36,277 bases of DNA from an uncultured archaeon (GCA_964493715.1 CAZBPC010000001.1:8006-44282); one strand, 5' to 3'. Shown: positions 5,409 to 32,080, counted from the stretch's first letter. Program-made: numbers and translations. Notes: generated from the sequence alone by a model not told the origin.

Positions 5409-6584
5409 ATGCCATCATCAAGTAAATCGCAAGATCGTCCTTTAATCTTAGATATTGGAAGTAATACTTTTCGAATGGGATGGGCAGGTGATGATTTTCC
5501 TGATATCATTGCTCCAAGCGTTTATGTAGATCTTTCTGATTTTATATTTACATCTGATGTATTAGAGGGATTAGAAGAGATTTATCTTCAGAATTCTGAA
5601 CAAGAATATTTTGTTGGTCATGCTGCTCTAAAATATCAATATATATTAAGGCTTCACGAGTTTAAAAAAGAGAATAATTATAACTTATTATTGAAATTCT
5701 TTTATTATTATTATCAACAACTTGGAATAGAAGAACGATTCCTATTCAAACAACCTTTGATCATTTTAACTTCATTTAACATGTCAGATCTGGAAAAGGA
5801 AAAGTATAAGGAAATATTTCTTGAATCATTAGGATTTCCGGCACTTTTATTTTTATCAGATGACCAAGCAATATTATCAACAATGCAAAAAACAAGTGGC
5901 GTAATTATAAATATTGGTGAAAGTACTACATTAATTTCAACCATATTCCATGGTTTCACTAATATCATGGCTAAGGATGTCTTCCCTATTTCAAGCAAAG
6001 ATTTGACAAATTACATGTTAAATTTGCTCATATCCAAAAAAATTTTTGAAGAAAATCTCTATATTGATGAAAAAATTGCAAATGAAGTAAAAGAGAGATA
6101 TTCTCTTTGTGCTCTCTATCCCGAGGAGGAGATCAAGAAAGTCAAGGAAGGATTGACGAAATATGATAGAATGATTACTTTACCGAATAACTTGAAAGTT
6201 AAAATAAATATTGAGCGAATTCAAGTTTCGGAACCATTATTTGATCCAAAAAAGATCCACATAGATTATATAAGCTTAGCTGAAGCCGTTTCAAAAGTGA
6301 TAAAAGCTTGGGATAGAGAGAATTGGGAAGAATTAATACCAAACATCATCTTAGCAGGAGGGGGGAGTTTGATTCCAGGATTAGCTGAGAGACTTAAGAT
6401 AGAATTGATGAGTTTCTTCTCTGAGAAAATAAAGAATAAAATAAATGTTATCGCTCCTTCTGGTCGTGAAAATATGGGATGGATTGGTGCTTCAATATTA
6501 TATTCTAAAGACCAATTACACAAGGGATGGATTGAAAGTCCAAGAAAGGAACAAAAGCTAGTTACTGAAGAAAAGGAGGAGTAA
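5409..6584 (+). CDS. Divergent eukaryote-like actin-related protein (Asgard Arp-type)
   Basis: LILDIGSNTFRMGWAGDDFPDIIAPS matches actin [24 protein letters not shown]. Also QAILS, ERIQVSEPLFDP, NIILAGGGSLIPGLAERLKIEL, APSGRENMGWIGASIL (actin APPERKYSVWIGGSIL). Confidence 0.93.
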   Translation: MPSSSKSQDRPLILDIGSNTFRMGWAGDDFPDIIAPSVYVDLSDFIFTSDVLEGLEEIYLQNSEQEYFVGHAALKYQYILRLHEFKKENNYNLLLKFFYYYYQQLGIEERFLFKQPLIILTSFNMSDLEKEKYKEIFLESLGFPALLFLSDDQAILSTMQKTSGVIINIGESTTLISTIFHGFTNIMAKDVFPISSKDLTNYMLNLLISKKIFEENLYIDEKIANEVKERYSLCALYPEEEIKKVKEGLTKYDRMITLPNNLKVKINIERIQVSEPLFDPKKIHIDYISLAEAVSKVIKAWDRENWEELIPNIILAGGGSLIPGLAERLKIELMSFFSEKIKNKINVIAPSGRENMGWIGASILYSKDQLHKGWIESPRKEQKLVTEEKEE

Positions 6585-6590
6585 AATGAA

Positions 6591-9176
6591 ATGACGGTAA
6601 GGCTTGATGTGAAAAAACAGTTTTTAAATAAATTTCAAGATTCTGTAATTCAGGCTAGAAAACTACTTCAAGTAGGAAACCATCATTGGGCAGATCGCTT
6701 ATTAACAGAATTATATTTTGAAATAGAAAGAAGTGAATGGTTAGATATCCAGAAAAAGCACCAATTAATAATGATCATTACAAATTCATGGTGGATGTAC
6801 ATAAATTCACTGATGCAATTAAAAACTGAAGAATCTAAAGTTGATATAACCAAATATATTGATGGTTATAAGCGATTTTTCTCTTTTTTATCAAAATTAG
6901 ATAACTTTTATCTTTTCAATAATTTTACAACTAAGTTATTGAAATCTTTCATTGGAATGGAAGAAATCTCTCTTTCTGGCATCACTAAATTCATAAATTC
7001 TTTTTGTGTAAAAGTGAGTGAACGAAAAGAAGATTTAAAATTAGTTGAATTACAAATCCTTCTAATGTATATAAGGAAATCCGTGATCCCTCAAGAATTT
7101 TATCATTTTAGTATGGAAATTATCGGGAGAACTGTTTTTAAACTAGAACCAAGTAAGAGATCCTTATTTTTATATATTCTATTAGAAAATATTAACTTAA
7201 ATTATCAGTTAATGGAAAATTCTGAAGAATTTGTAAGACAGATTAATAAAATTTTGCAAAATAGGCTCCCAAGTTATCTTAAAAATGAATTTAGTAACCT
7301 TAATCGGATCTCTGTCAATGAAAGAAATTTAACAACAATTTTAGGAGATCTTGAAGAATTAATATATTATCTTAATGATATTGGAGAAGCTTCTTGGATT
7401 ACAGTTATAATTAAGAATGTGTTTGAAAAACTAAATAGATTCAAATCATTTGGAGATGCGATTACGTACATCAGAAAATTCATTGATTTTTCGTTAGAAA
7501 GAAATCAATTTGATATTGCATTTGAAATATATGACTATCTCGAAGAGCTCTTTATGGTTCAGACTGATTTGGGATATGACAATATTTTAATTGAGTTGTG
7601 GGTTGAAGCTTCAAAAAAATTTGTAGATATGAAAGAAAAAAGATATTTATTGCAATCTTTAGAAAAGTTGAATACTCACTTAAAGGTTCCGCAAACTAAT
7701 GCTCAAATTTATCATTATTTCTATACATGTAATTTCTTATGGCAATTTAAATCAATCTTTTTTTCTTTAGAACAAAGAGATTTTTGGAGGATGATGTTTT
7801 ATAGAGTTTTATTTGAGGAACAAGATTTTGAATTAGTTAGTAAGATAATTCCTTATTTAGATAAGGATTTGCAGGAGATTATCTCGTTTCCAAAACAACT
7901 TTATAATGATGTTAACTCGTTTATTAGTGATATTTACACATTTGACGATGAACGATTTGCACCAATAATGCTTGAAGAAAATTTTGAAATTAAACAAATG
8001 ATACTGAGAATTGATGCTAATGGATCAATATCATATCGGATGATATCATTACAAGACCAGGTAAATGAAGGAAGAATTTTCAATGAATATTGGAATGACA
8101 CACAAATTATCGAGATATTCAACGATATATTCTCTAATAACCCTGAGAAAACGTTTAATTTTACTTTGATGGATATTGGTAAATTATTATATAATTTCCT
8201 CCCTAGAACAATAAGAAACTTCTTTAAACAGTTTCGGGTAAAGACTTTAAAGGTCGTTCCAGAGATATATTTTATACTTGAGAACATGACAATTCCGTTC
8301 CAGTTAATTTATGATAATAACTTTTTCTTGCTTAAATATTCTATAGGTTACATTATTGGGGAACCTCCTTTAGGAGGAGTATCTTTTGATTATCATACCG
8401 ATACTTCTATTGAAGATATACCTCAAAAGGATATTTCAGTTCTAATTATAGATTGCACTAATTCTGTTAATCCTTTAAAATGGAATGAATCAATAAAGAA
8501 CAAAGAATTAATTTTTCCTTTTCCAACTGGAGCAGAGGAACTCAAGTATATCACTAATTTTTTCAATAATAGGGATGAAGTCAAAGAAATTATAGTTTTA
8601 TCTGGAGAGTATTCTACCAGAAGTCATATTTTGTCCCAATTAGCTAGTAGAAAGCATAATATCATACATTTTGTTGGTAACATCTTTTATTCTAATTGGA
8701 ATCCATATAAGAGCTTTTTTCTAGCTAACAATAATGAAATTGTCACTTTCTATGAAATCAACTCTACTTTGAAATCCCAGAATGGAAATGTCTACCCATT
8801 CCTATTTTTTAATTGTCAACTATTTGATGTTAAGGGAAAAAGGATAAGAAATGCACTAAAAAGGTTTGGAGATATAATGAAGGAATTTGATCATAATTAT
8901 ATTACAGGGATTATTGCTCGAAGCATTCCTATCTTTGATGAAGAAACCCAAGAAATCTCATCCAATTTTTATATAAATTTATTAAAACATTCAAGCCAAG
9001 GATTTGCTCTGCTTAAAGCCCGGCAAGAATGCATGTCGAAGAAAATGACATTTCTTATTGAACAGGAATTACAAGATTTAAAAGAAGATGAAGCTACGAT
9101 TAAAGTTGATTTACAAAATTCACGAGCAATCTCCAGCTTTATTCTATATGGAAAACCTTGGAAAAAATTAAATTAA
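6591..9176 (+). CDS. Large alpha-helical N-terminal region plus C-terminal CHAT (caspase HetF/separase-like) domain, probably catalytically degenerate
   Basis: CHAT-like segments: IGKLLYNFLP, IPFQLIYD..FFLLKYSIG, GAEELKYI, NIIHFVGNI, FLFFNCQ, NFYINLL, ALLKARQ, SFILYGKP (canonical AFVLYGDP). Confidence 0.8.
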   Translation: MTVRLDVKKQFLNKFQDSVIQARKLLQVGNHHWADRLLTELYFEIERSEWLDIQKKHQLIMIITNSWWMYINSLMQLKTEESKVDITKYIDGYKRFFSFLSKLDNFYLFNNFTTKLLKSFIGMEEISLSGITKFINSFCVKVSERKEDLKLVELQILLMYIRKSVIPQEFYHFSMEIIGRTVFKLEPSKRSLFLYILLENINLNYQLMENSEEFVRQINKILQNRLPSYLKNEFSNLNRISVNERNLTTILGDLEELIYYLNDIGEASWITVIIKNVFEKLNRFKSFGDAITYIRKFIDFSLERNQFDIAFEIYDYLEELFMVQTDLGYDNILIELWVEASKKFVDMKEKRYLLQSLEKLNTHLKVPQTNAQIYHYFYTCNFLWQFKSIFFSLEQRDFWRMMFYRVLFEEQDFELVSKIIPYLDKDLQEIISFPKQLYNDVNSFISDIYTFDDERFAPIMLEENFEIKQMILRIDANGSISYRMISLQDQVNEGRIFNEYWNDTQIIEIFNDIFSNNPEKTFNFTLMDIGKLLYNFLPRTIRNFFKQFRVKTLKVVPEIYFILENMTIPFQLIYDNNFFLLKYSIGYIIGEPPLGGVSFDYHTDTSIEDIPQKDISVLIIDCTNSVNPLKWNESIKNKELIFPFPTGAEELKYITNFFNNRDEVKEIIVLSGEYSTRSHILSQLASRKHNIIHFVGNIFYSNWNPYKSFFLANNNEIVTFYEINSTLKSQNGNVYPFLFFNCQLFDVKGKRIRNALKRFGDIMKEFDHNYITGIIARSIPIFDEETQEISSNFYINLLKHSSQGFALLKARQECMSKKMTFLIEQELQDLKEDEATIKVDLQNSRAISSFILYGKPWKKLN

Positions 9177-9771: not shown

Positions 9772-9857
9772 GTTAGTGAATTTTTATTAAATTATACTTT
9801 ATTTATAATTTCAGATTAAAATTAATTGAGCCTCTTGAATTATTTACTTGAATAGTG

Positions 9858-12032
9858 ATGTCCACAGAAGAGAAAAAGTATAATGCTCATAGGATTATAA
9901 CTCAATTTGGGTTAAAATCACTTTTATTTAACGATGCAATGAAGGTTCTCACAGATCTTGCAATCAAATCAGATAAATTGTTTAAAAAACATTATGATTC
10001 TTGGTATTCTCATTTTAAAAACATATATGGAGTAAAAATTACACGGGATCTTTTTTTAAAGCATACCTACTACTCAATTGTGCTTAAGACCTTACTATTG
10101 GGTAAACTAGGAAATCATAATGATGTGGAAGGAGAATTCACGTTCTTCAAGAAATTTTTTAGTTATGAAGAAGTATTATTTAGCTGGGTCGATCCTGACT
10201 ATTATTTCAAAATATTACACTATAATTCACATCAAAATGTATCTTTTTCTCATGAAGACCTTTTTCATGAATTATATCAACAAATATTCATTTCAGAAAC
10301 TCGTCATAAAATTGGAGAATTTTACACTTCCCCAACTCTAGTTAATGAAATGGTAGATGATTCCTATACGCTAGGCATGAAAGTTTTAGATCCATCTTGC
10401 GGATCTGGTACATTTCTCATAGAAATTTTACTTAAAATACTCAGAGCTCCCCTTGATGAAGATAAGAAAAAAGAATATTTAACATATATTTTTGGCTTTG
10501 ATGTTAATCCATTAGCCATTTTAACTACAAAAGCTAACATATTAATGCTGCTACTTGATTTTATTGATATTGAAAACTTAAATGATACGAATTTAAATAT
10601 TTTCTTAATGGATTCTTTATTCCCAGAACAGATGAAATTAAATCTAAATTTTGATATTAAACAAATTTATCACTCATTTGATTTGATAATTGGGAATCCT
10701 CCTTGGTTAACATATAAAGATTTACTTGATAAATCCTATCAAAATAAAATTAGAGAATTAGCGGAAAAAATCTTAATCAAACCTCCAAGTCAATATATTA
10801 CTCATATAGAATTAGCCAGCGTATTTTTCTATTCTGTCCCTTTGAAATATTTAAAAATAAGTGGAAAAATATTTTTCGTCATTACCAAAAGTGTGCTAAA
10901 TGGGGATCATTGCTATAGATTTAGGTCATTTAGAATATTTGATCAAATAGAAATTTGGGATTTCCCCGAGAGTTATTTCTTTAATGTAAATCATATCTGT
11001 TTGAAAGCCACCTATATTGGAAAAGACAATATTATTCCAATACAAGCTAAATTTCCTATACCAGTGAAAATATATGATAAGGATATAAAATTTAAAAAAA
11101 AAGTAATGTATAATAGTATAAAGTTAGAAGATGATGGGGCAAGAATTATATTGTCTGAAGAAAATTTATCAAATTTTAAGGAATTATCTGAAAGCATCTA
11201 CAAAAATTTTTTTTACCAAGGAGCTACCCTAGTTCCAAGATCTTTACTCTTTTTCAAGATCGATGATAAATTGGAAAAAGTTTATCTAATCTCACCAGAT
11301 CTTGATGTAATTTCTCGTTCAAAAGCTCAATGGAAATTTAATTTTAATCAAACAGAAATTGAAAAAGCATTTCGTTATAAAACTTTTCTAAATATGGATT
11401 TAATTCCTTTTTGTATAAAGGGTTTCAGAAATGTTTTTTTACCAATAGATAAAGACTTTCAATTTGACGAGGTTTACCTTAAAAAATATCCGAAATCACT
11501 CAAGTTTTACAAGGAAATGAATGATTACTATATGAAAAATAAAAAATCAACCAGTGATATTAATACACTCTTTTCAAACGTTAATTATTGGAACAAATTA
11601 ACAAAACAAGTCAATAATAAAGCAAACATTGTTGTTTATAATGCAAGTGGCTCTAACTTGAAATCTGCAGTCATTATAAACAGGAAGAAGAAGCTTATTA
11701 TCGGTTCGGAGAACTATTATTACTCTACAGATTCTCTGTATGAAGCATATTTCCTCTCTGCGATTTTCAATTCGCCAATCTTATCTAAAACTATAAAACT
11801 TATAAAGTCAAGTCGACACATACATAAAAGACCGTTTTCTTACCCAATACCAAAATATGACGATGATAATCCACTCCATCGAGCTTTAGCAACTAAAGGT
11901 AAAAAATATCATACTGTAGTTAGAGATCTGGTTTTGAATAATCCAAAAATCAACGCGAATAAAACCAGAACATTTATTCATCATAAGTTAACAAAATTGA
12001 ACGAACTAGTAAATCAAATTATTTTCAAATAA
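9858..12032 (+). CDS. N6-adenine DNA methyltransferase (gamma-class, type IIG/N-6 methylase-like) with C-terminal target-recognition region
   Basis: GEFYTS, motif I VLDPSCGSGTFL, FGFDVNPLA, motif IV IIGNPPW. No recognisable endonuclease domain. Confidence 0.9.
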   Translation: MSTEEKKYNAHRIITQFGLKSLLFNDAMKVLTDLAIKSDKLFKKHYDSWYSHFKNIYGVKITRDLFLKHTYYSIVLKTLLLGKLGNHNDVEGEFTFFKKFFSYEEVLFSWVDPDYYFKILHYNSHQNVSFSHEDLFHELYQQIFISETRHKIGEFYTSPTLVNEMVDDSYTLGMKVLDPSCGSGTFLIEILLKILRAPLDEDKKKEYLTYIFGFDVNPLAILTTKANILMLLLDFIDIENLNDTNLNIFLMDSLFPEQMKLNLNFDIKQIYHSFDLIIGNPPWLTYKDLLDKSYQNKIRELAEKILIKPPSQYITHIELASVFFYSVPLKYLKISGKIFFVITKSVLNGDHCYRFRSFRIFDQIEIWDFPESYFFNVNHICLKATYIGKDNIIPIQAKFPIPVKIYDKDIKFKKKVMYNSIKLEDDGARIILSEENLSNFKELSESIYKNFFYQGATLVPRSLLFFKIDDKLEKVYLISPDLDVISRSKAQWKFNFNQTEIEKAFRYKTFLNMDLIPFCIKGFRNVFLPIDKDFQFDEVYLKKYPKSLKFYKEMNDYYMKNKKSTSDINTLFSNVNYWNKLTKQVNNKANIVVYNASGSNLKSAVIINRKKKLIIGSENYYYSTDSLYEAYFLSAIFNSPILSKTIKLIKSSRHIHKRPFSYPIPKYDDDNPLHRALATKGKKYHTVVRDLVLNNPKINANKTRTFIHHKLTKLNELVNQIIFK

Positions 12033-13719: not shown

Positions 13720-16700
13720 CTAAAGATTTTTTAAAGATGCCCCACAAATTGCACAAAATCGGGAAGGCATTTCTATTCGAGAACCACAAAATGGACAAAA
13801 GTTAGGTTGATCACTTTTAGAGTCAATATTTTCATTAACTTGAGCTTCTATTTGATAAGGCATAATGATACTGGTTCGAGGAGATTTCTTTCTTCTTAAT
13901 AAAAAGAAAGTAATACTTAACAATGCAACTATTCCGATCCCTAAGCTGGTTAAGAATATGGGAATTAAGTTAGGATTTTCTGGTTGTGTGGGAGGACTTT
14001 GGATATTAGTTATAAAATATCTTAATTCTGATTGTATCACCATTCCTTCAGTGGTAATTCCATTAAAAATAACAGAGTGAATACCATTTTCAGGAATTGG
14101 AATGACCTTATTTCCTGCAATTGTAATATCAGGGTTTCCATCTAAAGAATAACCGATCCATTCAAAATTATCACTTTGATTAAAACTTAGCAACAAACCT
14201 TCATTTAGATTATCTCCAAGAGCATAACTTTGGTCCCATGATAACCCAACCGCATCAAAATATATGATGCCAGAACTTCCAGAATAGCCAGATCTTATCT
14301 GGATGAATGAAATATCTGGAACTGGTAAGTGAAATGAACCTCCCTCTACTTCTTTTATACCATTTACATAAATATCTGTCGTATCAGTATCACAATCAAA
14401 GTCTATACGTATATGAAACCATTCTTGATCTGAATATTTTCCAGCGGCAAATTCGACATAGGTATTAGGAGCAGGACTATAACGGAAAATCCCGTTGTTA
14501 TCAGTATCAATCGTTATAATAAAACCAGTAGTAGTATCATCATTGCCTTGAATTACAAGAGCACAGTCACCACTCTCTTTGTAAACCCAGCATTCAATAG
14601 TACCCTTCACCTTAGGTGATTTAAAATTATATTGAGCCGTGGCATCTGCTCCTCCGCCTGTTGCCGTATCAGCATCAGCAATTAAAACGACCTTTTTATG
14701 ATTATCTTTTTGATCTTGAACTGAAATTGAACAAGACCCCGAGGGTGCTACTTCCGTCCATTCATCTGGTATGGTCCCAACTTCATCGTTTTCAAATCCA
14801 TAGGTCGCTGGGTAGTATCCACTCATTGGCTCGGTGTAGGTTTTACTTTCAGGTGTGATGATATTTATATAAGATGTAGTATCCACTGAAAAATGCTGAA
14901 CAGCGGATTCATACATGGTACCCCTGCTATCATTTCCAAACACTTGAATAAAATGAAGACCGTTATTAGGCATTGGAATGGTTTTATTTCCTAAAATTGT
15001 CCTGTTAGCTTGCCCATCAAGAGAATATCCAGTCCAATTGAAATTTGTATTTGTGTCATAACTAAGCAACAATCCTTCATTGAGGTTATCTCCGATATTA
15101 TAATTTGGATCCCATGAATAGCCAACGGCATCCCACCAAATTGTAAATCCCGATCCAGCAACACTAGTATGGACTTGAAATGTACCTACATCATCATTTT
15201 CTTCATAAGTAAAAGGGCCATATCGAATCGTGTTTATATAGATGAAATAAGTATATTGACTTGTTAATCCAGAGTATTCACTGGAATATGAACCTCTAAA
15301 ATCAAAGCGAACATGATACCACGTGTTTATTTGAGGATTTGGTGCTCCAGGTATGGGATAGCTACCTGAACTATTTGTAAATAGAAACTGATTTGAATCA
15401 ATGTTTAAGGTTGGTCCAAGAGTTACGGACCCACTTAATCGATAATAATTCCCAGCGGTTGCCGAAGTAAACCGACACCAGAATTCTATCGTACCATTTG
15501 TCTGAAGATCATAGTATTCAAGAAGATCTGCTGCACTTGAGCCTGAATTATCTATCACTTCGTACACTTTTTTGTGGCCATCGATTTCTGAAACAACATT
15601 ACCTTTTTGTAAAGATACATCATCCCAATCCGGATCATCTTGGCCATTAATAACATTTTCAAACCCATAAGTAGCGGGGTAATAACCCCCCACTGGTCCA
15701 GTATAGGTTTTATTTTCAGGAGTGATTACATTGATTGGAGATACCGTGAAATATCTTATATCAGATTGACACATCGTTCCTAATGTATCTGTGCCGAACA
15801 CTTGAATGTTATGCAGTCCATTTGAGGGCAAGGGAATAGTTGTATTACCTAAAATGGTTTTGTTCACGCTTCCGTCTAAAGAATAACCTTGCCAATCCAA
15901 ATTCGTGGAATTTTTATAACTTAATAATAAACCCTCATTAAGATTACCTCCAATGTCATAATTGGAATCCCATGAATATCCAATAGCATCATAATAGGTA
16001 TAATATCCTGTTGAACCTACCCACCTTGTTTCTAATGTAAGTTGTACAAGCGATGTTGAACCAATTTGAAAGGGTATGTCGGTTAAATATCTGATTTCAT
16101 CAATATAAACATCAAACTTCTGAGAAGTACAGTTGAAATCGATTCGAAGATGATACCATTGATCACTATTACAAGGTGCAATATCATTCCAGACACTTTG
16201 ATTATTCCATCGAAACATACCTCCTAAAGAAGTTATATCAATTGGAAATGTTCCGAAAGGATCTTTTATCCTGATAGATGTTGCTTCTGCGGGGTCAGTT
16301 CTCCGGAACCACATTTCAACTGTTCCTGCGATTTGATCAGTGAAATTGTTAATCATGCGAGCGCTATTACTAGTTGTTCCATCATATAGCTCCACTACAT
16401 TCTTATGAGCATCTAACTCATCAATAACTTGTATAGAGCATGGTGCACCAATTTCAAATGTCCAATCATAGGGTAGATTCCCAATATTATCATTCTCAAA
16501 TCCATAAGTCGCTGGGTAGTATCCACTCATGGGTTCAGTGTAGGTTTTATTTTCGGGAGTAATTAAATTTATTTGAGAAATAAAGAAATATCTTATCTCA
16601 GATTGATACAGCGTTCCTATTGGGGGTCCTGCGCCTGACACTTGAATGCTATGCGGACCAATTGATGGCATTGGAATGGTAGTGTTTCCTGAGATTGTTT

Positions 16701-17568
16701 TATTTACGCATCCATCTAAAGAATACCCTTGCCAATATAAGGCAATGCTACTCTCGTAGCTCAAAAGCAATCCTTCATGCATGTTATCTCCGACGTGATA
16801 TAAGATTATGTCGGTATCTTTATACCATGAATATCCTATGGCATCTATATAAGCTGTACCAGTCGAAGTCCACCCTCCCTTTATATTAGTGCTTCCAATA
16901 TTGTTTACTGGATTTAAGAAATTACCCCCATCCACCCGTAAGATCCCATCAATATACCATTCATATGTATCAGAAGTAGTATCAAAGATTATTTTATTAT
17001 GATACCACTGGTTAGAGACGTAGGATTGAACTACATTTCCTTCCATGTCTTTAAACGTATTATCACTCATTGAAACGGCCCCAGCATGAGTTCCCATGAT
17101 TCCTTCATGAAAGTGATAAGCGATATTATTAGTTCCTGAGACCTCAGTACTCCACCACCATTCGATAGTGCCCATAATTTGAGTTGAATCAAAATAATTA
17201 CGTGCTTCAGCATTTCCATTGGTATTTCCATCATGAACTCGTAAAACTTTCTTATGCCCTTGATAATTATTACTAATAACAACATCGCAATTTGATTGAA
17301 TTGCATTGGTTCCATCAACGTAAGCGATATTTGTCCTTGAAGTTCCATCCAATTCATTTTCGAATCCAAATGTTCCTGGGTAATAACCTGCCGTTGATTG
17401 AATATTTGTTTTATTTTCGGGTGAGATGATGGAAATCTCACCTGCACTTGACTTTGGAAGCTCGAGTTTATATTGAGGCTTAAAACTTTGATACGTTATG
17501 CCAGTTACGGTAAATAAAAAGATAAAGAGAAGTATACTTTTATATACAAATGATTTTTTTATTTTCAT
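13720..17568 (-). CDS. Large membrane-anchored surface protein: signal/TM, four ~285-aa repeats (Ig-like plus lectin/LamG-like), C-terminal TM and cytoplasmic zinc ribbon
   Basis: N-terminal hydrophobic segment. Four repeats start I.IITPENKTY..GYYPATYGFE and end EGLLLSY..W.GYSLDG..N.TI.GN.TIP.P..G.H.IQV. TM LIPIFLTSLGIGIVALLSITFFLL followed by RRKK. C-terminus CPFC..CAIC. ATG at 17568 preferred over TTG at 17586. Confidence 0.85.
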   Translation of the reverse strand: MKIKKSFVYKSILLFIFLFTVTGITYQSFKPQYKLELPKSSAGEISIISPENKTNIQSTAGYYPGTFGFENELDGTSRTNIAYVDGTNAIQSNCDVVISNNYQGHKKVLRVHDGNTNGNAEARNYFDSTQIMGTIEWWWSTEVSGTNNIAYHFHEGIMGTHAGAVSMSDNTFKDMEGNVVQSYVSNQWYHNKIIFDTTSDTYEWYIDGILRVDGGNFLNPVNNIGSTNIKGGWTSTGTAYIDAIGYSWYKDTDIILYHVGDNMHEGLLLSYESSIALYWQGYSLDGCVNKTISGNTTIPMPSIGPHSIQVSGAGPPIGTLYQSEIRYFFISQINLITPENKTYTEPMSGYYPATYGFENDNIGNLPYDWTFEIGAPCSIQVIDELDAHKNVVELYDGTTSNSARMINNFTDQIAGTVEMWFRRTDPAEATSIRIKDPFGTFPIDITSLGGMFRWNNQSVWNDIAPCNSDQWYHLRIDFNCTSQKFDVYIDEIRYLTDIPFQIGSTSLVQLTLETRWVGSTGYYTYYDAIGYSWDSNYDIGGNLNEGLLLSYKNSTNLDWQGYSLDGSVNKTILGNTTIPLPSNGLHNIQVFGTDTLGTMCQSDIRYFTVSPINVITPENKTYTGPVGGYYPATYGFENVINGQDDPDWDDVSLQKGNVVSEIDGHKKVYEVIDNSGSSAADLLEYYDLQTNGTIEFWCRFTSATAGNYYRLSGSVTLGPTLNIDSNQFLFTNSSGSYPIPGAPNPQINTWYHVRFDFRGSYSSEYSGLTSQYTYFIYINTIRYGPFTYEENDDVGTFQVHTSVAGSGFTIWWDAVGYSWDPNYNIGDNLNEGLLLSYDTNTNFNWTGYSLDGQANRTILGNKTIPMPNNGLHFIQVFGNDSRGTMYESAVQHFSVDTTSYINIITPESKTYTEPMSGYYPATYGFENDEVGTIPDEWTEVAPSGSCSISVQDQKDNHKKVVLIADADTATGGGADATAQYNFKSPKVKGTIECWVYKESGDCALVIQGNDDTTTGFIITIDTDNNGIFRYSPAPNTYVEFAAGKYSDQEWFHIRIDFDCDTDTTDIYVNGIKEVEGGSFHLPVPDISFIQIRSGYSGSSGIIYFDAVGLSWDQSYALGDNLNEGLLLSFNQSDNFEWIGYSLDGNPDITIAGNKVIPIPENGIHSVIFNGITTEGMVIQSELRYFITNIQSPPTQPENPNLIPIFLTSLGIGIVALLSITFFLLRRKKSPRTSIIMPYQIEAQVNENIDSKSDQPNFCPFCGSRIEMPSRFCAICGASLKNL
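14010..17436 (-). repeat. Four tandem intragenic repeats of ~840-870 bp
   Basis: Unit starts near 17436, 16572, 15735 and 14868. Near-identical DNA at conserved ends, e.g. gtcgctgggtagtatccactcat near 14805 and 16508. Boundaries approximate. Confidence 0.85.
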
Positions 17569-17708
17569 ATTGATTCGCGCATGCAAATTTTAGTCCTATG
17601 TATATTAAGATATAATTGAATATTTAAATATGCTATATGCATGCAGTTCATATTAAAACTCCTTAGTACAAGACACTCCCGAATATTTGCGTCATTCTGG
17701 TAAAATTA

Positions 17709-30347: not shown

Positions 30348-31133
30348 ATGAAATTATTTTCAATAAAGCTTCCTCTAATTAAAGAGAATGATCCATTATT
30401 AAGAATTGTAATAGAACAGATTAAAGTAGAAGGAGAATCCTTAAAAGAAGGAGATGTTGTTGTTATCGCTGAAAAAGTAATTGCTACCTCTCAGGGTAGA
30501 GTAAGAATTTTATCTGATGTGAAAGACATCTCAGATAAAGCTAAAGTTATGGCTAAGAAATATGATATGGATGAAAAGTATGTAGAGCTAATATTAGAGG
30601 AATCTTCTTTGATATTGGGGGGTTTAAAACACGTTATTTTGGCAAAAGTTAACGATTTTTTAATTGCAAATGCCGGGATCGATCAATCCAACGCTGGTCC
30701 AAATAAGGTCATTCTTTTACCAAAAAATCTTCATCAAGTGGTATGGGAATATTGGAGAGAATTAAGAAAAGAATTCAAAATAAAAAACCTTGGAGTAATT
30801 ATTGCTGATTCGAGAGTTCAGCCTCTCAGAAAAGGAACGATCGGCATCGCAATAGCTACAGCAGGTTTTGAGCCCATTGAAGATTTGCGTGGTCATCCGG
30901 ATTTATTTAACCGTCCATTAGAAATTACAATGAGAGCTATCGCGGATGACCTTACAAGTGCAGCCCAATTTCTTTTGAGTGAAGCAGATCAACAAACTCC
31001 TATAGTAATCATACGTGGAAGTAATATAGAATTCACAGAAAATCCACAATTAACTACGGAAATGCCCGCTGAAGAATGTCTTTATATGAATATTTTTTCT
31101 AAATACCTTCTTAGAAAAGAAAATGAATCCTAA
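30348..31133 (+). CDS. cofE: CofE-family (COG1478) gamma-glutamyl ligase
   Basis: GDVVVIAEKVIATSQG, ANAGIDQSN, GVIIADS..PLRKG, DLRG.PDLF.R.L, IADDL, EADQQTPIVIIRG. Confidence 0.88.
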   Translation: MKLFSIKLPLIKENDPLLRIVIEQIKVEGESLKEGDVVVIAEKVIATSQGRVRILSDVKDISDKAKVMAKKYDMDEKYVELILEESSLILGGLKHVILAKVNDFLIANAGIDQSNAGPNKVILLPKNLHQVVWEYWRELRKEFKIKNLGVIIADSRVQPLRKGTIGIAIATAGFEPIEDLRGHPDLFNRPLEITMRAIADDLTSAAQFLLSEADQQTPIVIIRGSNIEFTENPQLTTEMPAEECLYMNIFSKYLLRKENES

Positions 31134-31471
31134 CTAAATTAACTTATTTATACAAAATTTTCAAATTTATTAATTATCCAAATTCTTTCAAGCTTCCATA
31201 AGAGTAAATTTTTGATATTTTTCTTCCTTATTATTGAATATCTCTTTATTCGAAATTATTTCCAAAAACTATTTTTTAGTTAAACAGAAAAGTAAGGCTC
31301 GCTCCAAGATTATTTATCCTAATTTAAACTTTACGATCCTTCCATTGAATAAATAGATCAGAAACAATAAAAGTTGATATAGTAATATTTAAATTTGTTA
31401 TAGGTTTTCCTTATAATTGACATTTTATATAATTTCTAATCTCAATAAAAATAAAATTGGAGGCCTTTAAA

Positions 31472-31603
31472 ATGAATATTGAACTTAAAGATGATGATGA
31501 AGATGATGATTGGGATGATAGTGACGATGATGACGAGGATTGGGATGACAGTGATGATGATGATGATGATCTTGATCTAGATGATGATTTTGAAGACTTT
31601 TAA
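31472..31603 (+). CDS. Hyper-acidic microprotein, 43 aa, absent from the ORF track: MNIELKDDDEDDDWDDSDDDDEDWDDSDDDDDDLDLDDDFEDF
   Basis: Hand-translated. GGAGG at 31459-31463, 8 nt before the ATG; TATA-like tttatataa near 31425; T-rich tract downstream. Internal 30-bp repeat differs only at third codon positions. Confidence 0.75.
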   Translation: MNIELKDDDEDDDWDDSDDDDEDWDDSDDDDDDLDLDDDFEDF

Positions 31604-31723
31604 ACCTAATTAGCCAATAATACTCTTTCAAAATGCCAAATTTAATATAAATCTTAAAAAATTTTTAAAAATAGATATTTCTTTTTATTTATTTTTGTAT
31701 TTGTAAGAGATCTATAGCGATTT

Positions 31724-32080
31724 TTACTCATACAAAGTCTGAACTACACAGAAGAGGTTGCCATCAGGATCTTCCAACACGATATAATCATGATCTGGCT
31801 CATATCTCCAGGGATAACGAGTTGCTCCGATCTTGATCAACCGCTCTACTTCGCCATTTCTGTTGGTTGTGTAGAGATCGAGGTGTAATCTGCTTCTTTT
31901 ACCAGTACGTTTTTCTGGAACTTTATCTAAGGAGATATTGGGACTTTTTCCTTCAGGATCACAAAGAACAACCCACCCTTCCTGTGCCGGTTCTCTAGGG
32001 ACGTAATGGAGTGCTTCTTGCCAGAATGCGAACATTTTATCGAATTCATAGCACCGGATAACAATTGAACCAATTTTCAT
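31724..32080 (-). CDS. VOC/glyoxalase-like family protein
   Basis: IGSIVIRC..FWQEAL, RLHLDLY, EVERLIKIGAT, VLEDPDGNLFCV. Confidence 0.9.
   Translation of the reverse strand: MKIGSIVIRCYEFDKMFAFWQEALHYVPREPAQEGWVVLCDPEGKSPNISLDKVPEKRTGKRSRLHLDLYTTNRNGEVERLIKIGATRYPWRYEPDHDYIVLEDPDGNLFCVVQTLYE

Follow-up and report, generated by a model that had tools for sequence, protein, structure and literature searches.

A hyper-acidic microprotein of 43 residues, with a few conserved Trp and Phe residues among Asp and Glu, is encoded at positions 31472-31603 (+) of the 36,277-nt stretch of archaeal DNA analysed here (the window; 8006-44282 of contig C1 in genome G000). The host is a Loki-type Asgard archaeon (Promethearchaeota), and its assembly comprises 160 contigs, is rated 100% complete and has 31% G+C. 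Comparison with relatives indicates that this small open reading frame (micro-ORF) is a genuine protein-coding gene, expressed independently as far as its sequence signals tell. The family to which it belongs is undescribed; its molecular style is known from eukaryotes, and no homology to the eukaryotic proteins concerned was found. We put at roughly one in two the probability that the gene specifies a disordered polyanionic binder with aromatic anchors, the binding being a prediction.

The microprotein gene and its orthologues

The gene, two of its parts and the conserved gene upstream of it are as follows.

31472-31603 (+): coding sequence of the 43-aa acidic Trp/Phe microprotein, stop codon included; identified by ORF reading, orthologues, the codon-position pattern and its being the sole frame open in 12/12 orthologues
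31508-31567 (+): tandem repeat of 2 x 30 bp encoding DWDDSDDDDE and DWDDSDDDDD, with 4 differences between the units
31589-31600 (+): codons for the C-terminal F-E-D-F, the invariant end of the subfamily, matching the N-D-G-D-F-E-D-F/Y end of the orthologues in genomes G020 and G042
30348-31133 (+): cofE, F420-0:gamma-glutamyl ligase family (Pfam PF01996, E 3.1e-60), conserved upstream neighbour and synteny anchor

Reading from the ATG at 31472 to the TAA at 31603 gives MNIELKDDDEDDDWDDSDDDDEDWDDSDDDDDDLDLDDDFEDF, a 43-aa product with 26 Asp and 4 Glu (30/43, or 70%, acidic) and a computed net charge of -29. The 13 residues ahead of the first Trp read M-N-I-E-L-K and then Asp/Glu, and the C-terminus reads L-D-D-D-F-E-D-F; Cys is absent and the final residue is Phe. 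A first-pass annotation of the same DNA had reported the acidic content, two DWDDSDDDD units, the DDDFEDF end, a GGAGG site and a position within a gap of ~590 bp, all of which were confirmed by reading the ORF. It had begun the feature at 31459, which is the first base of GGAGG, whereas the start codon is 31472. Starting from an alternative in-frame TTG (31457) would lengthen the product to 48 aa, but that codon has no GGAGG upstream and is not a conserved start. As the first-pass annotation had also stated, the two 30-bp units (31508-31537 and 31538-31567) differ only at third codon positions: all four mismatches (31519, 31525, 31534 and 31537) fall there, three of them synonymous and one changing E to D. 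In a census of stop-to-stop frames of 25-120 aa over the whole 3.68-Mb assembly, only 3 of 60,714 had at least 45% Asp/Glu over their last 35 residues, which places the acidity of the micro-ORF, the most acidic of the three, beyond chance.

A protein search of relatives turned up small open frames, 42-58% identical, from three species of the genus, and profile searches added more. Orthologues of the F-E-D-F type (genomes G001, G006, G020 and G042 of the genus) share an M/L-N-I-E-I/L-K-D N-terminal end, W14 and an F-E-D-F/Y end. E4, K6, D7, W14 and F-E-D-F are invariant in alignment A1, and W14 is nearly so in the alignment of the cofE-linked subfamily (A4). The features kept are W14, a second Trp or Leu ten residues on (W24 in the window), an F/W-x-x-F/Y end and the acidity itself. 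Since Trp and Phe positions are kept in relatives, the product appears to be a real protein.

The surroundings of cofE (flanks up to 7 kb, both strands, one composition filter) were scanned at 80 loci of named Promethearchaeota metagenome-assembled genomes (MAGs). An intact small acidic ORF with Trp was present at 15 of the 80, in all 15 cases on the cofE strand and downstream of it, and no other frame in ~1 Mb satisfied the same filter; the synteny next to cofE to which the first-pass annotation had pointed is therefore found in other Asgard genomes. The cofE-linked subfamily was defined by a small ORF 3′ of cofE, on the same strand and in its own intergenic region, which is the arrangement of the window copy. 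Its C-termini are of two types, F-E-D-F/Y (6 loci, window included) and L-x-F/Y-Y-S with variants (8 loci). In a CofE tree of 79 rows, a quick one with approximate likelihood-ratio (SH-aLRT) support only and its thorough search unfinished, the 14 holders fall in two clades of 12 rows each, with none among the other 55 rows.

Orthologues range from 34 to 55 aa, and as each reads without interruption from a conserved start to a conserved stop, every net change in length has preserved the frame. Differences at codon positions 1, 2 and 3 numbered 78, 47 and 152 for the F-E-D-F type and 198, 180 and 571 for the Y-S type, the compared pairs not being independent, and were mostly exchanges of GAT with GAA or GAC. 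The acidic codons are mixed (176 GAT, 66 GAC, 113 GAA and 14 GAG), which a pure repeat would not show. The sense frame is open in 12/12 orthologues and any other frame in at most 3/12, and the start, stop, W14 and F-E-D-F persist across species whose CofE is only 72-74% identical. Third-position excess, in-frame lengths and a single open frame thus uphold the earlier proposal of a coding microprotein, and the frame-breaking repeat changes and loss of W/F named at that time as signs to the contrary did not occur.

The exact 43-aa protein does not occur among ~15 billion predicted proteins, which means that the micro-ORF has escaped every pipeline; one orthologue (P0005) has been called by the NCBI, JGI and ENA pipelines, without a name. 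A micro-ORF is also carried by DATKTW010000028.1 (locus L101; protein P0002), which is titled 'Candidatus Nanopelagicaceae bacterium' and has a CofE that nests in the Promethearchaeota clade; it is probably a mislabelled or mis-binned MAG.

Candidate expression signals flank the coding sequence.

31405-31420 (+): TTTTCCTTATAATTGA, likely promoter element of transcription factor B recognition element (BRE)/TATA type, from alignment of orthologous upstream regions
31459-31463 (+): GGAGG, Shine-Dalgarno-like, 8 nt 5′ of the ATG, kept in 5/5 orthologues retaining the stretch
31662-31696 (+): three T5 runs 3′ of the stop, starting at 31662, 31682 and 31692, possible archaeal termination signals

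The five orthologues that retain this stretch start with ATG (three) or TTG (two). Shine-Dalgarno-like words lie 4-17 nt before the start in 23 of 36 family ORFs, compared with 153 of 1400 random ATGs from the same loci. The putative promoter element is identical in four of five loci (the window, L049, L048 and L105), variant in L097 and deleted in L108; its assignment as BRE/TATA is plausible from archaeal promoter anatomy.

Paralogues and the search for known relatives

Two more acidic Trp microprotein genes were found in the same genome, at C12:44510-44698 (63 aa; L127:3511-3699) and C122:272-535 (L128). All three hyper-acidic frames of the genome bear D/E-W-D/E motifs, and both paralogues carry an exact N-D-G-(D/E)-W-(D/E)-(D/E) core. 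Three other species have the C12 paralogue (paralogue 2) at 59-69% identity, always with the DYNDGEWDE core unchanged; its synteny is kept at 17 loci, between genes for a coiled-coil/HEAT protein and a cyclophilin. The C122 paralogue has two NDGDWDD units and an ambiguous start codon. Searched as a DNA pattern, the core gave 46 matches in 41 of 152 genomes of the order, and its reversed-pattern control gave 0. Of 330 genomes drawn from the phylum, each at least 80% complete, it was present in 37 of the 116 belonging to taxonomic family f1 and in 0 of 214 from 30 other families (control 0). At 30/30 loci read, the core lay within an acidic ORF of 31-74 aa (33 ORFs in total).

The cofE-linked orthologues of G020 and G042, together with protein P0003, end in N-D-G-D-F-E-D-F/Y or N-N-G-D-F-E-D-Y. 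In view of the G020 and G042 ends, the D-D-D-F-E-D-F of the window looks like a worn core with Phe in place of Trp. We rate shared descent of the cofE-linked subfamily and the N-D-G-x-W family as likely; N-D-G-(D/E)-(W/F)-(D/E)-(D/E) would then be the core of a wider family that probably takes in all these genes. Two small acidic Trp ORFs of genus g22 sit in a different gene context. One g22 locus (L143:1137-1316, -) has an acidic Trp micro-ORF followed by a 57-aa ORF with a Lys-rich N-terminal end (MKKNTKKNKKKKK...) and an otherwise acidic sequence.

Searches for described relatives returned either nothing or members of the same family. The Pfam profile PF05160 (DSS1_SEM1) had no match at E<=10 in the six-frame translation of the genome, and hmmscan of 10 and of 29 members against Pfam gave no PF05160, WH2 or other meaningful family. 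The Pfam scan of the window assigned no family to the micro-ORF at E<=0.01, and members had none at E<=10. None of 14 members matched PHROGs or NCBIfam. Family profile A4 had no match at E<=10 among PDB chains, those of Sem1/DSS1 included, and only two at E<=1e-3 among 1.84 billion representative proteins, both family members. Homologous-protein searches, not aimed at longer fused forms, yielded five matches with A2 and two with A5, all family members, and none of the 345 pattern matches from a locus search with A1 was confirmed. The ESM Atlas returned only unnamed clusters (scores 0.82-0.85), which were uninformative. A literature search, with bioRxiv supplements outside its scope, found no paper joining Asgard archaea and DSS1, and nothing relevant by title or abstract on acidic small proteins of Asgard or other archaea. 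LysW/ArgW amino-group carriers, which have an N-terminal Cys4 zinc-ribbon and a C-terminal Glu acceptor, were considered and rejected on the absence of Cys, the Phe end and the lack of an NCBIfam or Pfam match.

The first-pass annotation had likened the peptide to yeast Sem1/DSS1, to the acidic tails of WASP-family activators of Arp2/3 and to motifs that bind the AP-1 gamma-ear, likenesses that we take to be resemblances between low-complexity strings. Kinship with Sem1/DSS1 gained nothing from the PF05160, PDB and hmmscan searches, a WASP/Arp2/3 link nothing from the search for WH2 or another Pfam domain, and no support was found for the gamma-ear link. As no homology was found, these resemblances are compositional and are not evidence of kinship; the convergence that the same annotation had allowed for is the better reading.

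Predicted mode of action and competing explanations

AlphaFold, run with the family alignment, returned a mean predicted local distance difference test (pLDDT) score of 62.7, a predicted template modelling (pTM) score of 0.13 and no secondary structure; values for the C12 paralogue were 62.8 and 0.14. These results fit the disordered polyanion proposed at first pass. A chain of 43 residues with this net charge would not be expected to fold alone and should seek polycations. Acidity combined with conserved aromatics is the signature of acidic-aromatic linear motifs, for which reason the reading as a disordered binder was adopted. Electrostatic attraction would bring the acidic string to one or more partner proteins, onto a surface or tail of positive charge where the Trp and Phe side chains would anchor in hydrophobic pockets; the bound peptide might then act as a competitor or decoy for nucleic acid, as a shield or as a small adaptor for its partner.

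Eukaryotic users of such a style include DSS1, CSNAP, prothymosin and many short linear motifs. Prothymosin-alpha forms a disordered polyelectrolyte pair with linker histone H1. The microprotein resembles it in extreme negative charge and predicted disorder, and the genome has five histone genes, of which one (G000:C39:23939-24196) encodes an 84-aa histone with a Lys/Ala/Pro-rich N-tail and a net charge of +13; by analogy, this tailed histone is a conceivable counter-ion. Unlike the microprotein, prothymosin-alpha needs no aromatic anchors, and the micro-ORF is not adjacent to a histone gene.

DSS1 and CSNAP are described as small acidic disordered subunits of PCI complexes with aromatics flanked by acidic residues (PMC8442969). 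To that extent they are like the microprotein, which is tiny, disordered and very acidic, with a few position-conserved aromatics flanked by Asp/Glu, and the exchange of Trp for Phe among micro-ORF relatives mirrors the difference between DSS1 and CSNAP. In kinesin-1 cargo adaptors, W-acidic and Y-acidic motifs are read by a basic groove of the tetratricopeptide-repeat domain of kinesin light chain (PMC6214655). Here too an aromatic within Asp/Glu serves as the recognition unit. Those adaptors are large eukaryotic proteins with a single motif, whereas the whole microprotein is a motif array, and kinesin and its light chain are not involved. The D-W-D-D-S unit of the window resembles, we presume, a W-acidic motif. 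DSS1, CSNAP and the kinesin adaptors exemplify acidic-aromatic motifs binding basic grooves with hydrophobic pockets.

On the reading adopted, disordered, hyper-acidic microproteins with aromatic anchors are kept as a set in at least one lineage of Lokiarchaea. Asgard searches for eukaryotic forerunners use annotated, domain-bearing proteins only, to which this gene is invisible. Should a ubiquitin-like protein (Ubl), the tailed histone or an actin-related protein prove to be the partner, the gene would offer a simple and testable instance of regulation through motifs among the archaea most closely related to eukaryotes; without a partner it is a well-documented example of real micro-genes escaping annotation.

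Several observations weigh against a disordered binder with a conserved role. Transcription and translation of the micro-ORF are predictions from its sequence, and the third-position excess could partly stem from constraint on a GA-rich DNA element. The window protein, ending in L-D-D-D-F-E-D-F, lacks the N-D-G-(D/E)-W core, and hhalign of A4 (cofE-linked) against A6 (N-D-G-x-W) gave a weak 36.9% probability over 8 columns. No neighbour gene is common to the subfamilies, a very basic small protein is encoded within 600 nt at 0 of 46 loci, and the conserved HEAT/coiled-coil neighbour of the C12 paralogue is itself acidic. The distribution is patchy as well: only 13 of 41 genomes of the genus have the cofE-linked ORF, and four of the six closest relatives (CofE 90-93% identical) have no micro-ORF at the locus and no match to the family profiles. 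In G001 (locus L108 = L002) a deletion of ~90 nt, bounded by AATATT direct repeats (aligned to window 31390-31480), has taken the TATA-like box, GGAGG and start codon and left the rest open. The gene is therefore dispensable. Among those six closest relatives, G020 and G042 retain the micro-ORF behind a three-gene insertion; in G051 cofE abuts the deoxyhypusine synthase gene and the entire block is gone, and in G016, G050 and G005 the locus is rearranged and the micro-ORF missing.

Of the alternatives, the one that survives best, although we consider it unlikely, is that the microprotein is functionally equivalent to DSS1/Sem1 or CSNAP, acting as a disordered hub of acidic-aromatic type that docks on Ubl proteins or scaffold subunits, by convergence or, less likely, by very old descent. 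Composition and logic match, with conserved aromatics flanked by acidic residues as in the UBS1/2 sites of DSS1 and the F/D-rich end of CSNAP (PMC8442969), and the genome offers a setting. It holds a full ubiquitin-like operon (G000:C35:9142-14435; C25:6474-6812) with two Ubls, a ThiF-type E1, a UBC E2 and a JAB/MPN protease, a conserved basic Ubl encoded elsewhere, and acidic-Phe repeats on the operon Ubls. The search results already given stand against such an equivalence, since PF05160 is absent and the family profile matches no PDB chain. DSS1 is also described as having a transient C-terminal alpha-helix after two acidic-aromatic sites (PMC8442969), whereas the microprotein ends at its second aromatic site and no C-terminal helix appears in its AlphaFold model. 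It further differs from DSS1 in having no detectable sequence relation to it, in being more acidic (70%) and shorter, and in being dispensable. Matches to the PCI profile PF01399 (best E 1.6e-7) were also obtained in 6 of 14 control prokaryotes, Escherichia coli included, and are thus probably generic winged-helix matches. That the family occurs in a single Asgard taxonomic family also speaks against a common ancestor with eukaryotes.

Improbable too is a role as charge buffer or chelator, in which the peptide would bind Mg2+/Ca2+ or polyamines with high capacity and low affinity and have no specific protein partner. A net charge of -29 over 43 residues would suit it, and the locus is ancestrally beside deoxyhypusine synthase and near pyruvoyl arginine decarboxylase, both polyamine-linked; we also take the N-D-G of the wider family, with its aromatic and acidic residue, to be loosely similar to Ca-binding loops. 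However, ion buffering needs no conserved Trp/Phe or F-E-D-F end, paralogues and other-genus members lie in unrelated contexts, and a single-copy gene with no sign of high expression is not what buffering requires.

A bolder proposal, which we rate as a long shot, is that acidic-aromatic strings form a recognition code of the Asgard Ubl system, in which the microproteins would be trans-acting, DSS1-like adaptors or decoys on the basic Ubl or on E1/E2, competing with the N-terminal repeats of operon Ubls. In 10 of 11 distinct sequences (30 loci, family f1), operon-type Ubls begin with (D/E)(D/E)FD(D/E) repeats, which share the vocabulary of the microprotein's L-D-L-D-D-D-F-E-D-F end. The separate basic Ubl of 84 aa (G000:C58:11782-12033; L179:183-434) keeps 89-98% identity between genera of the taxonomic family (46 of 60 genomes) and ends in ATQAGG plus 0-2 residues (in G000, ...QAGG plus one residue). 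If correct, the proposal would describe a prokaryotic forerunner or analogue of eukaryotic acidic short-linear-motif hubs.

Equally hard to sustain is a non-functional origin, whether as a chance-open GAT/GAA-rich microsatellite, as a neutrally drifting young ORF or as a by-product of an RNA or antisense peptide that is the real product. Low-complexity sequence, patchy loss and the G001 copy without a start speak for it, as do sub-threshold C/D-box matches and a 48-aa His-rich antisense frame in the window. Against it stand the start, stop, W14 and F-E-D-F kept despite CofE divergence, the exclusively in-frame length changes and the mixed acidic codons. The C/D-box small RNA candidates (RF01139 and RF01304) were rejected, with scores of 17.9 against 42 bits and 16.6 against 40 bits, under their gathering thresholds; GATGA words mimic the C box and account for these near-matches. 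The antisense His-rich peptide and a Met-rich peptide in the +1 frame were likewise rejected, as their frames are closed in at least 9 of 12 orthologues and the peptides are not conserved. The adjoining upstream block has no conserved RNA fold, in a test that covered the block and not the ORF.

WASP-family activators of Arp2/3 have an acidic (A) tail with a conserved Trp, and such acidic-Trp tails bind Arp2/3. A regulator of actin or actin-related proteins working through acidic-Trp motifs of this kind is scarcely credible here: D-D-W-type strings and the acidic run with Trp are present and four actin-family proteins are encoded (one in the window, 5409-6584 (+), PF00022, E 4.9e-46), but the WH2 and connector parts of a WASP VCA region and any Pfam domain are absent from the micro-ORF, Trp is swapped for Phe, Tyr or Leu at several orthologue positions, no subfamily is linked to actin genes, and ARPC4 (PF05856) was not found, a weak negative because the control genomes were silent too.

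The locus and neighbouring genes

The micro-ORF lies within the 590 bp that separate the cofE stop (31133) from the end of a glyoxalase gene (31724), at a spacing of 338 nt from cofE. Two further features border it.

31174-31400 (strand not assigned): conserved non-coding block of ~230 nt upstream of the promoter, from the orthologue alignment
31724-32080: glyoxalase-like gene, convergent with the micro-ORF, downstream of the gap

The upstream block is as conserved as the ORF (majority fraction 0.83-0.91 compared with 0.78-0.85) across five species, including some with CofE only 72-92% identical, and in G020 and G042 it travels with the micro-ORF, not with cofE. It contains no conserved small ORF, has no Rfam match and no second genomic copy, and no conserved RNA fold was detected in it on either strand (alifold z -1.1 to +1.4 against column shuffles). 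CofE was set aside as a functional partner of the microprotein, since the three-gene insertion in G020 and G042 spares the ORF and the paralogues and g22 members lie elsewhere.

That insertion is a cassette between cofE and the micro-ORF block (L048:8090-12409 and L049:8094-12407 in G020/G042), found inverted in G016 (L052:7966-12309). Its genes encode a protein of ~560 aa with a C-terminal GNAT domain and proteins of 397 and 489 aa without a Pfam family; in the cassette loci the micro-ORF block begins with an apparent duplicated remnant of the cofE 3′ end.

Other neighbouring genes are those for gyrB, gyrA, a pterin-binding enzyme, a DSBA fragment, deoxyhypusine synthase, pyruvoyl arginine decarboxylase and a class II aminoacyl-tRNA synthetase. 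Farther away, the window encodes a CHAT-domain protein (6591-9176, +), an Eco57I/N6-type DNA methyltransferase (9855-12032, +) and a 1288-aa protein with a sialidase-like carbohydrate-binding module and a C-terminal zinc ribbon (13720-17586, -).

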